From IMG/VR virus record IMGVR_UViG_3300010223_000002: 55,404 nt of DNA. One strand, 5' to 3'. The position numbers and the translations under genes were made by a program. This DNA comes from an uncultured virus (IMG/VR IMGVR_UViG_3300010223_000002) (lineage: Duplodnaviria; Heunggongvirae; Uroviricota; Caudoviricetes). Shown here one piece after another: positions 5,781 through 55,371 of this stretch. Each line of letters opens with the position of its first letter. The first letter of the stretch is position 1. The notes below the pieces were generated by a model, which did not search any database, had not been told where the DNA came from, and saw nothing but the letters and a program-made list of their open reading frames with translations.

Positions 5781-6671
5781 ATGGGTAACTGGCTTCGCGA
5801 TCACTTTTATCGGTTTGTATATCCAGCGCTTTGTTGTGCAAAAGCTAATACATATTCTGCGAATGCTAATTCTATAAAAACATTCTTTCCTGTAGAAATT
5901 TCCGCTAAAGATTACAAATTTTGCGCCTGGTGGGATAAACTTCCGCCAGAATTGGCAAAATTGCGCGCGCTTTGCGATCAATTGCAAATCGGCTGGTCGT
6001 CTTGTAATTATTCGCAAGGTTGGCGAGCTAATTTGCATTTTGATGTTATGCGTGAAACGTTGATTAGTGCAGAGCGTAGACGCAAAACGCTTGGATGTGA
6101 TCGCTTGCTTTTGGCTGGAAGGGATGTTTGGGTTTTGGAAGTTATGGCAAAAAGACGTGGTATTGATACTTTGTTTTTGCCTGAAATTAGTCGTAATGTA
6201 GCTTCTTTCCCAAATCAATTGAAGGCTTTTTTGATTGAAAAAGGCTTTACTGGAAATGAGCTTTTGGTTGACACTGGTTTTGTCGGAAGTATCCCTAAAA
6301 AAATTGATGAAGCCATGGGAACTAATTTAAAATTTGTTCTTATGAGTCAAGAAAAGAAATTTAATTATCTCAATTGTTCTATTTCTATACAAGATCAGAA
6401 CTGTATTGATAGACCCAATCAGGTATTTCCTCAGCGCAGACTAGCTAGAAAAGAAGCTCTTGAAACCGAATATTTGCCTAAGTATTGGAAAACTGGAACG
6501 GTCAAATATCAAGATGGAGTTGTTCAAGTTGTTCAATTTTTATCAGAACCGCAAGAAATTGTTTTAGCGGCAATCCTGACTTCTGATATTTGGCGTGGTG
6601 TCAAATATGGAAGAGTAAAAGGACAAACTAAACATAAGAAAGGAGGTAATTATAATGATTACATGTTGTAG
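5781..6671 (+). CDS. Hypothetical protein with phosphoribosyltransferase/HAD-associated-like motifs
   Basis: LLLAGRD and LLVDTGFVGSI motifs; start chosen after AGGGG RBS (ORF open from 5640). Confidence 0.4.
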   Translation: MGNWLRDHFYRFVYPALCCAKANTYSANANSIKTFFPVEISAKDYKFCAWWDKLPPELAKLRALCDQLQIGWSSCNYSQGWRANLHFDVMRETLISAERRRKTLGCDRLLLAGRDVWVLEVMAKRRGIDTLFLPEISRNVASFPNQLKAFLIEKGFTGNELLVDTGFVGSIPKKIDEAMGTNLKFVLMSQEKKFNYLNCSISIQDQNCIDRPNQVFPQRRLARKEALETEYLPKYWKTGTVKYQDGVVQVVQFLSEPQEIVLAAILTSDIWRGVKYGRVKGQTKHKKGGNYNDYML

Positions 6672-6973
6672 AGATTCTCCCTAACTAGTTACGTTTTTGC
6701 TAATAATGATTGAAGTAAATAGTCGATGACAGTAGGTCAAAACAGATTAAAGATGATTGGACCGAAAGTCCGTAATCGACTAAAGGTTGCAAGCTTGAGT
6801 GAAAGCAACTGGTCAGTGGTGACTACCTCAAGATGGATACATAACTCTAATGTTGAAGGAGGGACAAAGTCATGCGACTATTCTAGTAGGTCAACAGTGT
6901 ACGGATTTAATTTAGATGTAAGTAAAAAACGTGTAAAACAGCTTTTGTTTAAGAAAAGCTGGACGTTTTTTAT

Positions 6974-7063
6974 AGATAAAATTTAGATGCACAGCAGATA
7001 AAATTTAGATGCACAGCTTCCGGTGAAGCTGGGGGAAGAAAATGCGTAGTTAAATGCGTAGTT
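6974..7063 (+). repeat. Two short tandem duplications (22 nt x2; 12 nt x2)
   Basis: AGATAAAATTTAGATGCACAGC at 6974-6995/6996-7017; AAATGCGTAGTT at 7040-7051/7052-7063. Confidence 0.9.
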
Positions 7064-7262
7064 AAAAACATCCTTCCCTGATAGTAAACGTTAACAANNN
7101 NNNNNNNTAACAATCAAATGTATGAAGTAAAAGGTGGTAGGTAAAAGGTTCATAACTAAGTAGCACTGAAAGGTGTGAACGCTGATTAGACACGAAGATT
7201 CTAGACCCTATCGTTGATTTAGTCAGTAGAACCTGGTCTTTACAGATTGAACGCATACCGCC

Positions 7263-7433
7263 TAGTGACGTAAGGTTCGTCGAGTCTAATAACTAATTGG
7301 AACGTTCCTGACAGTTAGTTGGACTAGAAAAAAAGGAACACCTAAAAATTGTACGGAAGTAAAATGTGCCAAATACCTGAGAGATGAAACTCGTGGAAGG
7401 TGGCGCTTAGTGACGTAAGGTTCGTCGAGTCTA
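7263..7433 (+). repeat. Perfect 26-nt direct repeat
   Basis: TAGTGACGTAAGGTTCGTCGAGTCTA at 7263-7288 and 7408-7433. Confidence 0.95.
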
Positions 7434-7482
7434 GTAGACTATAAAGCAAAAAAGGGGTCAGCACAGAAAAAAGACCCCTAAA

Positions 7483-7558
7483 GTCCCCATAGCTCAATGG
7501 ATAGAGCAACAGCCTTCTAAGCTGTGGGTTAAAGGTTCGAATCCTTTTGGGGATGCCA
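7483..7558 (+). tRNA. tRNA-Arg(TCT)
   Basis: Cloverleaf; anticodon loop CT-TCT-AA; GGTTCGAATCC T arm; encoded CCA. Confidence 0.95.
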
Positions 7559-7800: not shown

Positions 7801-7814
7801 TCTATGGTCTTACA

Positions 7815-7866
7815 AAACTGAGATCTTGAGATTTTTGACCATACATTGATCTCAAGATCTCAGTTT
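7815..7866. repeat. Perfect 18-bp inverted repeat with 16-nt spacer
   Basis: AAACTGAGATCTTGAGAT (7815-7832) / ATCTCAAGATCTCAGTTT (7849-7866). Confidence 0.9.
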
Positions 7867-8184
7867 CCAGCGGGGTGGTGTGTTATGAAAGAATGTCACA
7901 TTGTTGAATTTATCGGAAAGCCAAAAGAAGTTATATCCAAGATGGATGAAGCTTTTATTGGTTTAAGCGAGATTAGAGTTACTGTTAGGTATGAAGTAGT
8001 TGATAGTTCAGTTGCTTCTAAAGATAGTAAAGCTGCCAAACATATGTTGGAAATACGAAAGACTATAAAGGTCAATAAAAGATTGAAGAAAAACGATAGC
8101 GCTATTATTAGAAGCATAATTGAAAGATTTGGAATTGAGCCTCCCATTGCTGAATCGCTAGTTAAAGGTTATTCGGAATAGCCA

Positions 8185-12547: not shown

Positions 12548-12561
12548 TCATAAAGGTTAAA

Positions 12562-12625
12562 TGGCTAAAATCCTAGCCAGCCTTCCTACAGTTAGTTTCG
12601 TTCCCCTTTACTTTCTGTAGGAAGG
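12562..12625 (+). promoter_or_regulatory. Two intergenic hairpins
   Basis: TGGCTA/TAGCCA and 11-bp CCTTCCTACAG/CTGTAGGAAGG. Confidence 0.5.
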
Positions 12626-12839
12626 TCCAATTAGGTCTTAGTTAATAGGGGGTTTACTAAGATGGAAAAAGTATACATTCTTTCATGTCTAACTTTGGAT
12701 CAGATCAAATCTCAAATAGATAATTCTGGCACATGTTGTCTTAGAATATCTGTTGATAAGAAAGATGCAATAAAGAAAAGTCATATGGGAATGGGATGTA
12801 AAATATATGAGATGACAATTGAAAATTTAGAGGATAGAG

Positions 12840-14412: not shown

Positions 14413-14656
14413 TGTTTGTTGCTAAGTCAAATAGCATATCTAGTGATGTGTCGATCGTCGAGTCTACAGGGGGCGCATGGGCGTGCGTGTCCGTTCTCTG
14501 GTGGGATGTTGCCACGTGGTTGTGGTGGGCTTCTGGCGCCATCTGAGCGGCGCGCATGGATGGTTTTGGAGCTTTGCGACGGTCGTCGATTGCCTGTGCG
14601 AGTTATTAAAATGTCAAACGAACATGTAGTTGTAGAAAAAGTGCAATAAGATTAAA

Positions 14657-16150: not shown

Positions 16151-16159
16151 AGTATCATA

Positions 16160-16368
16160 AAGGTTCATTCGAATTGTCAGGGCTGGTGAGAGTCTGGCAG
16201 TAAGATAACGGAGGTTACCCAAGAAAACTAATCCGGTGGAGTTACTGGTATTCATTTTTTTCACCCATGGTATCAGATTCGGTTTTACCGATTTACAACT
16301 TCACGTCAGTTTTTGGTTAAGCTGACAGAACCTTAGAGACTTTTAGGATTGATCACCCTTTTAGTCTC
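16160..16368 (+). ncRNA. Candidate multibranched structured RNA upstream of tRNA-Leu
   Basis: AAGGTTC/GAACCTT closing helix enclosing about five hairpins, followed by GAGACT/AGTCTC hairpin. Confidence 0.4.
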
Positions 16369-16372
16369 GATT

Positions 16373-16459
16373 GGCCTCGTGGCGGAATTGGCAGACGCGG
16401 TGGGCTTAAAACCCGCTGATCGCAAGATCGTATCGGTTCGAACCCGATCGGGGCTACCA
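16373..16459 (+). tRNA. tRNA-Leu(TAA), copy 1
   Basis: Type II cloverleaf with GATC-GCAA-GATC variable arm; loop CT-TAA-AA; CCA encoded. Confidence 0.95.
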
Positions 16460-17045: not shown

Positions 17046-17129
17046 GGCCTCGTGGCGGAATTGGCAGACGCGGTGGGCTTAAAACCCGCTGATCGCAAGA
17101 TCGTATCGGTTCGAATCCGATTGGGGCTA
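17046..17129 (+). tRNA. tRNA-Leu(TAA), copy 2
   Basis: Nearly identical to copy 1 (two C>T changes near the 3' end; CTA instead of CCA). Confidence 0.93.
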
Positions 17130-17268
17130 CTAATGAAAAGAAGAGTAATAAAGAAGCAATATAATAGAAAGATTAAATTGTATTCTGCTATGAATAAAAA
17201 GAGTAAAGGATATCATACTAGATATACAGATAAAGCTAGATTTGACAGAATTATAGAAGAAATGCTAA

Positions 17269-38435: not shown

Positions 38436-39695
38436 TTAGGATTTATTAAAAATTGGCCCTGCCATCAAATTGCGTGATACTCGTACATCACTGTAATTCT
38501 GTATGTAATGCCAATACGATCCAGAAACATATGGAGCAAAATATATTCTATTTTCTTTTGCAGAAAAAGAACCAGAAGAAAATGCATTCACTGCCGTAAT
38601 AATATTATGTTGATAAGAAACTACATCTCCATTATAGCAATCTACATAATGCCAATCAGTCTGAGTAGATTGAAAATTAGGAACAAAATAAATTCTATTT
38701 AAAACTGGATCATATACTCCACCTACATAAGTACCTGTAACCGTTATTATTTGGTTATTTAAATATGCTTTCAAATTTCCATCATTACAATCAATGTAAT
38801 GCCAATATTCTTGCGGACCTTGATTATATGGTACTAGATATATTCTGTTTTGCGTAGGACTGTAAACTCCCCCACTGTAAGGAACGCCTACCATAGATAA
38901 TCCTTGATAATCTAAATTAAATGTTCCGTCATTACAATCAATATAATACGTATAATCAGTAGATTGTGATACAGGATTGAAGTATATTCTATCATCTGTA
39001 GGACTATATGTTCCACCTGAAAATGAACCAGTAATTGACTGCCCATGAAGATAAGCTACAACATCACCACTATTACAATCAATGTAATGCCACTCAGAAT
39101 GAGTAGCTTGACCAAAACTTGGAATAAAATATATACGATTTTGTGTAGGACTATAAACTCCTCCAGCATATGCTCCTAAAAAAGCAGTAGCACCATGCGT
39201 ATAAGCTACAATTTCACCAGTATTACAATTCACATAGTGCCAATCGGATTCTTGTCCTTGATAAAATGGTGCAAAATAAATTCTATCTTGTGTTGGACTA
39301 TATGCTCCGCCATTATAAGCATATCTAACTACGCCGATAGCTCCATGTAAATATTCAACATAATTACTTATTTCACAGTCTATGTAATGCCAATTAACTC
39401 GATTTCCTTGACCGTTAGGCACAAAATACACACGATTTTGTGTAGGACTATAAACTGCTCCCTGATATGCTCCTGAATTATCTAAATCTACTGGACGTTC
39501 ATAACTACCAACACCAAAACTAACCTTTTTAGCTTGTTCTTGTAATGGATAAAGATAGTTGAGTAATTCCGTTTGATCAAAATCATCCAGCCGCAGGCTG
39601 GGAATATGCGTAACCTTCTTAATCAAATAATAAAGTCTACGTAGTTGATTTTGAATTTCAAACTGGGTTGTACCAGTTAGCATTGGACGTTTCAT
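38436..39695 (-). CDS. Seven-repeat beta-propeller protein (putative virion/receptor-binding)
   Basis: Seven ~50-aa repeats GGxYSPTQNRIYFVP...WHYIDC. Confidence 0.75.
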   Translation of the reverse strand: MKRPMLTGTTQFEIQNQLRRLYYLIKKVTHIPSLRLDDFDQTELLNYLYPLQEQAKKVSFGVGSYERPVDLDNSGAYQGAVYSPTQNRVYFVPNGQGNRVNWHYIDCEISNYVEYLHGAIGVVRYAYNGGAYSPTQDRIYFAPFYQGQESDWHYVNCNTGEIVAYTHGATAFLGAYAGGVYSPTQNRIYFIPSFGQATHSEWHYIDCNSGDVVAYLHGQSITGSFSGGTYSPTDDRIYFNPVSQSTDYTYYIDCNDGTFNLDYQGLSMVGVPYSGGVYSPTQNRIYLVPYNQGPQEYWHYIDCNDGNLKAYLNNQIITVTGTYVGGVYDPVLNRIYFVPNFQSTQTDWHYVDCYNGDVVSYQHNIITAVNAFSSGSFSAKENRIYFAPYVSGSYWHYIQNYSDVRVSRNLMAGPIFNKS

Positions 39696-44118: not shown

Positions 44119-45394
44119 TTAGAACTTATTGAACAGCGCGCCAGCCATAAGATTTCTTGACACTGGTATATCACTGTATTCTTGTATGTAATGCCATGTA
44201 TCTTCATCAGATTGACCACTAGGAGATAGATATATTTTATTTTCACTAGGTGAATAATTGCCTCCGGCATAAGCCGCATTAGATACGTTTGCATTCACAT
44301 TATTTAAATATGAAATTACAGTTTCAGTATTGCAATCAAGATAGCACCATTCGTCTTGTGAGCCTTGAATAAAAGGTACAAAATAAATTTTATTATCTAC
44401 TGGACTATAAACAGCCCCGTTGTATGCATAATTTTCTGATGAAACTAATCCATGTTCATATGCAATTACTTCTCCAGTATCACAATCGATATAATGCCAA
44501 TCATCTTGTGGAGCTTGACCAGATGGACTAAAATAAATTCTGTTATTATTTGGTGAATATGCTCCTCCTACATATCCATATTGAATAACTAATACTCCAT
44601 GTTCATATGCAACCACATTACCAGTATCACAATCAATNNNNNNNNNNTTGATTAGCTTGACCAAAAGGTACAAAATAAATTCGGTTTTGAGTCGGACTAT
44701 AAACTCCAGCATTATATGCACTTGCGACTGTTGTTATTCCTTCATGTGTATATGCAACTACATTACCATTATCACAATCTACATAATGCCATTCAGATTG
44801 AGTACCCTGTTCACTAGGTACAAAATAAATACGATTTTGTGTTGGACTATAAACTCCGCATTGATACGCACTATCAATAGCTGTTGTGCCATGTGCATAA
44901 GCAACAACTTCTCCAGTATTACAATCAATGTAATGCCAATTAATTTCGTTAGCTTGTCCATAAGGAACAAAATAAATACGATTTTGTGTAGGACTATATG
45001 CGCCTCCAGCATATGATCCACTTATTGTAGCTCCAGCACCATGTGCATAAGCAACAACTTTTCCAATATTACAATCAATGTAATGCCAATTAGGTTGAAT
45101 TGCTTGTGCTGCTGGTACAAGATAAATTCGGTTTTGAGTCGGACTATAAACACCACCAACATATGCATTATTAACAGGAACAACCCCCGAATCATTCAAA
45201 TAACTTCCAACCCCAAAACTAACCTTTTCGGCTTGCTCTTGTAGAGGTTCAAGGTAATTAAGCAGTTCTGTTTGATTGAAGTCATCCAATCTCAAACTAG
45301 GAATGTGAGTAACTTTCCTAATTCGATTGTACAATTTAAGTAATTGAGACTGAATCTCAAATTGAGTCGTGCCAGTTAGCATTGGTTTATTCAT
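44119..45394 (-). CDS. Seven-repeat beta-propeller protein, paralog of 38436..39695, split only by a scaffold gap
   Basis: Same N-terminus (PMLTGTTQFEIQ) and C-terminus (VSRNLMAG); four repeats before and three after the N run. Confidence 0.75.
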
Positions 45395-46039: not shown

Positions 46040-46390
46040 TTAGTATTTATTAAACAACGCCCCTGCCATCAAATTACGTGATACTGGTATATCACTGTAT
46101 TCTTGAATGTAGTGCCAAACAGATTGAGGTGCTTGTTGAAATGGTACAAAATAAATACGATTTTCAGTGGAACTATATGTTCCTGAAGAGTATGCTTGAC
46201 TAACTGCTGTCACATTATTACTATATTCAACTACGTTTCCAGTATCGCAATCTATATAATGCCAATTGGTTTCGGACGACTGTAAAGCAGGTACAAAATA
46301 AATTCGATTTTGTGTTGGACTGTACACTCCACCATAATATGCAAAGTTAATTGCTGTAACTCCATGTTCGTAAGCTACAACTTCACCAGA
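46040..46390 (-). pseudogene. 5'-truncated beta-propeller gene (last ~2 blades)
   Basis: SGEVVAYEHG...YSPTQNRIYFVP...PVSRNLMAGALFNKY; upstream ATG is out of frame. Confidence 0.75.
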
Positions 46391-54593: not shown

Positions 54594-55038
54594 GGGAAAG
54601 AAAAGAAAAGCCAAATTAAAAAAGAAAAAACCAAAACCAACTATTATTCCTAACTTCAAAATATTGAACGATGGAAACAAATTAATAGCGCTATTACAAA
54701 ATTATCAATTACCGTCAAGAGCAAATATTCAAGAACATTGGGCAGTCAAAGCAAAAAGGACCAAAGAACAAAGACAAGGTATCAAATTCATACTCAATAC
54801 ATGCGAATTCAAACCAAAATTACCTATTACAATCACATTATGTCGTATTGCGCCTAAGAAATTAGATGATGGAGATAATATTGGTATGGCATTCAAAGCT
54901 ATCAAAGATGGCATAACAGATTATCTTGGATTAACTAATGATGATGATATTAGACTCAAATGGAAATATGACCAACAATCTGGCGCCCCACGATATTACG
55001 CTATCCGCGTGACACTCGAACACCACCCAACGGACTAG
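54556..55038 (+). CDS. RusA-like Holliday junction resolvase
   Basis: PSRAN, LDDGDNIGMAFKAIKDGITDYLG..DDD. Confidence 0.7.
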   Translation: MAGKSQLELLIDKGKKRKAKLKKKKPKPTIIPNFKILNDGNKLIALLQNYQLPSRANIQEHWAVKAKRTKEQRQGIKFILNTCEFKPKLPITITLCRIAPKKLDDGDNIGMAFKAIKDGITDYLGLTNDDDIRLKWKYDQQSGAPRYYAIRVTLEHHPTD

Positions 55039-55146
55039 GGCCATGCTGCCACGCAAATGGGCCTAGCTGCTCGCGTCAGGTTGGGGCGCAGGGTGCGACA
55101 CGTAGGAATCGACCTAGGCGGCAACGATTCGCAGCAATGAGGTATT

Positions 55147-55371
55147 ATGGCAACTCCACAAACATGGCACTGGGCAGCACATATCTTATCCAAAGGAAAG
55201 AATAAGTTAATATGCGATAGATGCAAAGATATTGTTGAACTTCCTATCGAACCATCGAAAGATATTGATGAACTAACGACAGAAAAAGAAAAGAAAAATT
55301 ACAGAACTATGTGGTTGTGGAGAATACGCGCGATCGGTGATTTCGTAATAAAACACAGATACTGTCAATAA
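55147..55371 (+). CDS. Small Zn-binding hypothetical protein
   Basis: CDRC...HRYC; GAGG RBS. Confidence 0.55.
   Translation: MATPQTWHWAAHILSKGKNKLICDRCKDIVELPIEPSKDIDELTTEKEKKNYRTMWLWRIRAIGDFVIKHRYCQ

Follow-up and report, generated by a model that had tools for sequence, protein, structure and literature searches.

The element described here has its closest described counterparts in the RNAs GOLLD (RF02032) and ROOL (RF03087). With GOLLD it would share a length of about 800 nt, and it shares a phage genome as carrier, the position next to tRNA genes and the presence of variable parts, and GOLLD sometimes carries an embedded tRNA (accessible sections of PMC12286853 and PMC12990946). With ROOL it shares the large size, the A-richness, the many junctions and the vicinity of phage tRNAs (accessible sections of PMC5737381). 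The accessible sections of PMC12286853 raise the question of whether large natural RNAs form cages in general, and the candidate RNA may also bear on what giant tRNA-linked phage RNAs do. Phage T4 reportedly produces RNAC and RNAD, stable RNAs of 120-140 nt that are processed from a tRNA operon; the candidate would likewise be a structured RNA freed from a phage tRNA transcript, but it is far longer and has no Rfam match.

The locus and its relation to known RNA families

The window analysed here, a stretch of 55,404 nt, was taken from a contig of 117,404 bases with a phage-like genome and encodes an endolysin, a dUTPase, a thymidylate synthase, a sigma factor, a resolvase and five tRNAs. The candidate RNA stretch is flanked by a gene for a 296-aa protein (5781..6671, + strand, stop at 6671) and by tRNA-Arg(UCU) (7483..7558, + strand), the 5' end of which is likely the 3' boundary of the RNA. 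The upstream protein belongs to no named family, with zero matches in PHROG and Pfam and sub-threshold leads only in an atlas search, and served as synteny anchor. It has 28 homologues among 3005 candidates; the closest one known is 58% identical and encoded on a 135-kb contig. The sole sizeable forward ORF within the element (6726-6986, 86 aa) has no match among PHROG or Pfam families or among the proteins of the distant relative considered below.

A promoter-like sequence, TAAACA-16-TATAAT (6629..6656, + strand), agrees with the consensus at 10/12 positions and is a weak lead; the promoter scan found 5 such sites where 2.4 are expected; a counterpart at the matching place in the relative was not found. 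The sequence also reads as a Shine-Dalgarno-like AGGAGGT with a 9-codon ORF that overlaps the end of the upstream gene (6641..6684, + strand), and none was seen in the relative. About 28 kb of same-strand genes follow the element. Together with the promoter-like site upstream and a further module copy in the middle of the operon, this could indicate a cis-acting leader of the downstream + strand genes, for example an antitermination element of the put type. However, the element far exceeds such leaders in size, it is separated from the first gene by a tRNA, and the relative has not retained the promoter-like site, which renders a leader function improbable.

An affiliation with the catalogued giant RNAs had been proposed in the first-pass annotation, which suggested a divergent GOLLD or ROOL or a new class. 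The Rfam scan that it recommended retrieved no family at cut-off except tRNA; at E<=10, the element together with the tRNA gave the tRNA itself, a tRNA-shaped model on the reverse strand of the tRNA and a chance match of 12.6 bits. The ROOL model has no match at E<=10 in the window or in the relative, whereas it exceeds 200 bits in 3/3 control phages (213-265 bits). The GOLLD model, which covers the conserved 3' domain (416 positions), has no match at E<=10 in either genome, a result to be read with its silence in 3/3 would-be control phages; phage LBR48, a candidate GOLLD control, has an annotation that contains no large gap. Likewise, neither Rfam nor ARAGORN matched tmRNA, RNase P RNA, group I or II introns, T-box elements or known ribozymes in the element.

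The comparison of features leads to the same result. Different from GOLLD, the candidate RNA has no conserved 3' domain that could be found and consists of repeated modules that run into the 5' end of the tRNA. The ROOL consensus pairs its 5' and 3' ends in a long helix, which is not predicted in either element, and GAAGUA, the core of the word repeated here, is absent from both ROOL controls examined. A phage location near a tRNA, as in GOLLD and ROOL, is present in the window and in the relative. Since both model tests fail and the likeness is confined to setting and size, the candidate is not classed with either family.

Bacterial Y RNAs (YrlA) were considered for a GUCGA sequence beside a hairpin and because the relative's element contains a domain that resembles a tRNA. 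The Y RNA motif, GNCGAAN0-1G (accessible sections of PMC4201824), fits neither of the two window modules, which read GUCGAGUC, and one of the relative's three, and the assignment was rejected. A gene for the Y RNA partner Ro60, expected within 4 kb, was not found either: no TROVE domain was matched in the relative's assembly, where a control search matched in 2/14, or among the 22 window proteins scanned. The literature search, with supplementary motif lists (e.g. of PMC5737381) outside its scope, gave no account of the candidate RNA or of a GAAGUAA motif in phages. The candidate is an uncatalogued modular RNA, the conservation of which rests on two genomes.

Predicted architecture and folding

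The start of the element, annotated at 6720, was corrected to approximately 6688, about 30 nt earlier, because a 14-bp helix (6688-6702/7082-7095) encloses the whole 5' half. The element is an estimated ~780-800 nt long (~795 nt between the predicted ends, with the gap at its nominal size). The annotated helices that were looked up are present at their positions (8/8), but some are alternatives and not additive, because the ensemble substitutes longer-range pairings. In place of the helix 6720/6775, it favours pairing of 6718-6730 with 6869-6882 (p 0.98-0.99), which also breaks the annotated hairpin GGAC-CGAAA-GTCC.

On the + strand, the predicted 5' domain (6688..7095), closed by the 14-bp helix, has pair probabilities mostly between 0.5 and 0.99. 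It contains a multibranch subdomain (6712..6886) with the partial module W0, which comprises GAAGUAA, the favoured helix 6718-6730/6869-6882 and CUAG and is not matched by the full module descriptor. A long hairpin (6922..6973, p 0.95), in which AAAAAACGU/ACGUUUUUU pairs around CAGCUUUU/AAAAGCUG, precedes a region (6974..7063) with two perfect tandem duplications, one with a 22-nt unit (6974-7017) and one with a 12-nt unit (7040-7063), which reflect either recent slippage or an assembly artefact. The assembly gap (10 N, 7098..7107) has TAACAA on either flank, so that the true gap may be nil.

The 3' half contains two copies of the module on the + strand. W1 (7124..7325) consists of GAAGUAAA, helix P1 (7132-7139/7256-7263) with a branched insert of 116 nt, AGU, hairpin P2 (GACG-UAAGGUU-CGUC) and helix P3 (7283-7325). 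W2 (7356..7440) has GAAGUAAAAU, P1 (GUGCCA/UGGCGC) with an insert of 29 nt, UUAGU, a P2 identical to that of W1 and a short P3. A direct repeat of 33 nt at 7259/7404 had been overlooked in the first-pass annotation, as had the tandem duplications. CRISPR arrays and the repeats of type III antitoxins, judged by their general features, were ruled out by the spacing (145 nt, two copies). The element ends with a terminal hairpin AGGGGUC/GACCCCU (7453..7479, + strand, p 0.99), 3 nt upstream of the tRNA, which has no U tail and is not called by a terminator scan.

The predicted fold comprises 20 hairpin loops and A-rich linkers, and two loops (7200-7205 and 7299-7308) have self-complementary sequences that may be fortuitous. 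These properties would suit a single giant RNA, ornate and the first of its class, copies of which self-assemble into a GOLLD/ROOL-like cage via kissing loops and A-minor contacts. The size and the phage and tRNA setting, as in GOLLD and ROOL (accessible sections of PMC12286853 and PMC5737381), and the tRNA-like piece embedded in the relative's element, which recalls the tRNAs that GOLLD can embed (accessible sections of PMC12990946), point in the same direction. Yet no conserved global fold or pseudoknot is demonstrable and the two elements fail to align, while GOLLD and ROOL retain a model-detectable signal across phyla; a cage is therefore unlikely. A scan for loop partners found short and mostly occupied partners only. 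The first-pass picture, a single ornate molecule that keeps its overall fold, could not be demonstrated, and the part that both elements have in common is a short repeated module.

Folding of the whole element, including the N gap, exceeds that of shuffled sequences (z -4.45, equalled by 0/25 shuffles). On the + strand, the 5' and 3' halves reach z -3.5 and -2.6, respectively, and the 5' domain -4.3. Eight coding controls of equal length (8 shuffles each) range from z +1.3 to -4.3, one of them level with the element. At a window size of 250 nt, the element gives z -1.3, -5.0, -1.3 and -3.3, compared to a mean of -0.54 (sd 1.2, minimum -3.6) in 76 controls, and at 120 nt it is inconspicuous (z -0.7, -1.0, -1.7, +0.4 and -2.8; 457 windows overall, mean -0.36, sd 1.23). 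The folding signal is thus real but moderate, given the low value for the whole element on the one hand and the equal coding control and unremarkable 120-nt windows on the other, and it is not unique within the window. The lowest 120-nt values of the window (z -3.6 and -5.4) are found in a coding stretch just past the tRNA (7801-8040).

Chance hairpins in intergenic DNA that has decayed or was assembled wrongly would explain the N gap, the perfect tandem duplications and the coding control that folds equally well. The relative, however, has a folded gap at the same place, and the motif enrichment that is found in both directions between the elements makes this reading unlikely; we regard it as very improbable.

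The preference for the + strand, deduced in the first-pass annotation from G-U pairs, is retained for the 3' half (z -2.6 versus -0.3 on the minus strand) and lost for the 5' half, which gives z -4.4 and -5.9 on the minus strand versus -3.5 and -4.3 on the plus strand. Folding of the 5' half on either strand, the direct repeats, the A+T-rich middle and a palindrome copy by a G+C-rich patch (14450-14600) are compatible with a DNA element, such as an origin or an array of protein-binding sites, with palindromes that mimic RNA helices. Against this stand the kept G-U pairs, the GNRA loops and the tRNA-like insert, the unequal folding of the two strands that the 3' half and the relative display, and a sequence that lacks the conservation expected of binding sites, and we consider it quite improbable. 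Overall, a leader, a DNA element or an artefact is doubtful even if the three are taken jointly. The base composition of the element equals that of the genome. The G+C-rich patches (~0.6) of this low-G+C genome are located at 14450-14600, directly after a lone module copy, and at 54976-55150.

For the central claim of the first-pass annotation, that a large non-coding RNA with a defined structure adjoins a phage tRNA, support comes from the folding, from the lack of coding potential and from a distant relative with a strongly folded gap in the syntenic position. The structured RNA locus is very probably genuine.

A probable counterpart at the same place in a relative

Among 54 candidate stretches in species genomes, 2 loci were identified with a profile of the upstream protein, including the relative, L134. 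This locus belongs to G006:C1, a phage-like contig of 136 kb that was binned with a Saprospiraceae assembly, a label that need not identify the host. By blastp, 28 ORFs of the window match this contig at 27-57% identity, mostly in the same order. The homologue of the upstream gene is followed by a gap of 1001 nt, a tRNA-Arg with the same anticodon (UCU) and a gene similar by eye to the 72-aa gene of the window. The gap is strongly folded (z -8.7 over its first 829 nt, L134 11015-11843), with -288 kcal/mol on the plus versus -212 kcal/mol on the minus strand, and at E<=10 Rfam yields only tRNA-type matches in it and no other family. It contains its own internal repeat of 30 nt and a tRNA-like cloverleaf (L134 11844-11912; z -3.1), the reverse strand of which is matched by a tRNA-shaped Rfam model. 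The cloverleaf ends in CAA, and its anticodon arm consists of three pairs capped by a GNRA loop. The relative encodes a separate tmRNA (G006:C1 29018-29369) with the tag ANDNAFLAAANG; permuted tmRNA genes were seen in two unrelated viruses with a distant homologue of the upstream gene (L128 242-552 and L125 12205-12351).

The two elements are not aligned by BLAST or nhmmer (best nhmmer E 7.5, outside the element), and the 8-mers that they have in common (34) exceed the null mean (18) while staying below the null maximum (41; 267 windows). A first link is provided by a single word. GAAGTAA is the most enriched 7-mer in the relative's element, with 6 occurrences versus 0.27 expected, and it occurs three times in the window element, where 0.13 are expected. 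None of 1061 other windows holds three copies, and 3/2668 windows do so in the relative's genome. Conversely, the top 7-mer of the window element, AAGTAAA, represents this motif with an offset of one position and is also enriched in the relative. In the RNA, GAAGUAA is predicted to be mostly unpaired in 3/3 window copies but in only 5/9 copies of the relative.

The word is part of a module with the consensus GAARYAAA, helix P1 with a variable insert of 4 to >100 nt, an (U)AG linker, hairpin P2 and GRRU. A descriptor of this module, fitted after the fact to its five copies, matches five times in 191 kb on both strands: two matches are in the window element, three in that of the relative and none elsewhere. 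All five copies have a U-G pair in P1, which the descriptor does not require, and P1 of W2 differs from that of its counterpart L0 (L134:11056-11126) by three double changes, which fits an RNA of the + strand. In a five-row model alignment, itself fitted to the structure, 94% of the cells pair and 8/16 pairs change on both sides.

A model built from W2 only, the bounds of which were picked after the likeness to the relative had been noticed, has a single match in the relative's 136 kb, located inside the gap (18.2 bits, E 0.035). With filters off and 96 of the 136 kb searched, the second of 16 matches is another module. The reverse test failed, as a model of the relative's repeat ranks a window module 19th/32; this reverse model also produced a chance match at E 0.039, and E values near 0.04 are accordingly at the noise level here. 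The module model R1 detected a solitary partial copy (14417..14475, + strand; 16.6 bits, E 0.039) right after the endolysin stop, with a U-G pair in P2 and GAGUCUA, which alone does not fold above shuffles (z -0.6). Overall, a common origin of the two elements is likely.

A proposed modular scaffold and its alternatives

Our preferred reading, to which we assign a probability of about 40%, is a long, fast-evolving non-coding phage RNA that derives from a tRNA operon transcript and works as a multivalent modular scaffold. The sequence, its predicted folding, the synteny and the common motif and module are the observed part of this reading. We infer transcription, release by RNase P, a single molecule and the scaffold role. 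The element would be transcribed from the + strand together with tRNA-Arg(UCU). RNase P cuts the 5' ends of tRNAs, and its cut at this tRNA would produce the 3' end of the RNA; in the relative, the embedded tRNA-like element may provide a second such signal. The RNA would then consist of hairpin domains linked by A-rich stretches, with several copies of one module, each of which may act as a docking site for a protein or another RNA segment. A scaffold is suggested because the divergence has spared a repeated, mostly unpaired word next to a helix junction and not the global sequence. The same two flanking genes are also kept in the relative, although the common proteins are only 27-57% identical. 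Against it are the restriction to two genomes, the lack of alignable sequence, the failed reverse test, the equal folding of the 5' half on the minus strand and the prediction of a mostly unpaired word in only 5/9 copies of the relative.

The same modules could instead be small structured RNAs, each independent of the others, or mobile structured repeats that have accumulated as an array before the tRNA and are cut to pieces. The lone partial copy 7 kb away, the differences in module number and order between the genomes, the recent duplications in the window element and the internal repeat in the relative's, and a second folded spacer before tRNA-Leu (z -3.2) would all agree with such an array. 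It remains doubtful, because long-range helices are predicted to close 5' domains of 400-500 nt in both genomes and the tRNA and Rfam scans found no tRNA-like cut site within the window element. Rather doubtful is also a new class of large phage RNA, in which repeated modules would assemble into a higher-order particle, protein-free or multivalent; such a class might add to GOLLD and ROOL a third way of forming giant tRNA-linked phage RNAs.

For the preferred modular scaffold, the conserved unit is a repeat of 55-90 nt, and the module should therefore be easier to dissect than GOLLD or ROOL: by itself it could be probed, mutated and used as bait. Such RNAs can diverge past alignment while the phage proteins still align, and thus RNA catalogues probably undercount them.

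Further homologues were sought in several collections. In blastn searches of 50,697 phage records with both window halves and the relative's element, short chance matches only were obtained. Exact sequence patterns gave 0 matches in IMG/VR, and a 15-mer occurred in at least 120 metagenome stretches, the 120 among the matches listed all being chance by context. The neighbouring proteins had 0, 9, 1, 1 and 7 loci in IMG/VR; the loci compared share too few genes or have DNA without a match. The module model R3 matched 0/17 virus records and R1 0/13 records, including the whole assembly of the relative.

The window has further structured or repetitive stretches. A second folded, gene-free spacer (16151-16372) runs into tRNA-Leu(UAA), with z -3.2 and 1/200 shuffles equal; it has no Rfam match at cut-off and is closed by an AAGGUUC/GAACCUU helix similar to one at 7146/7229. 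Two tRNA-Leu genes (16373-16459 and 17046-17130) both have the UAA anticodon. An intergenic stretch with three hairpins (12548-12661, z -3.0) begins with TCATAAAGGTT, like the sequence at 16155, and this common start may be a signal for transcription initiation or processing that both use. On the minus strand, several paralogous proteins with repeated YSPTQNRIYFVP-like units are encoded at 38436-39695, 44119-45394 and 46040-46327, and one of them spans an assembly gap.
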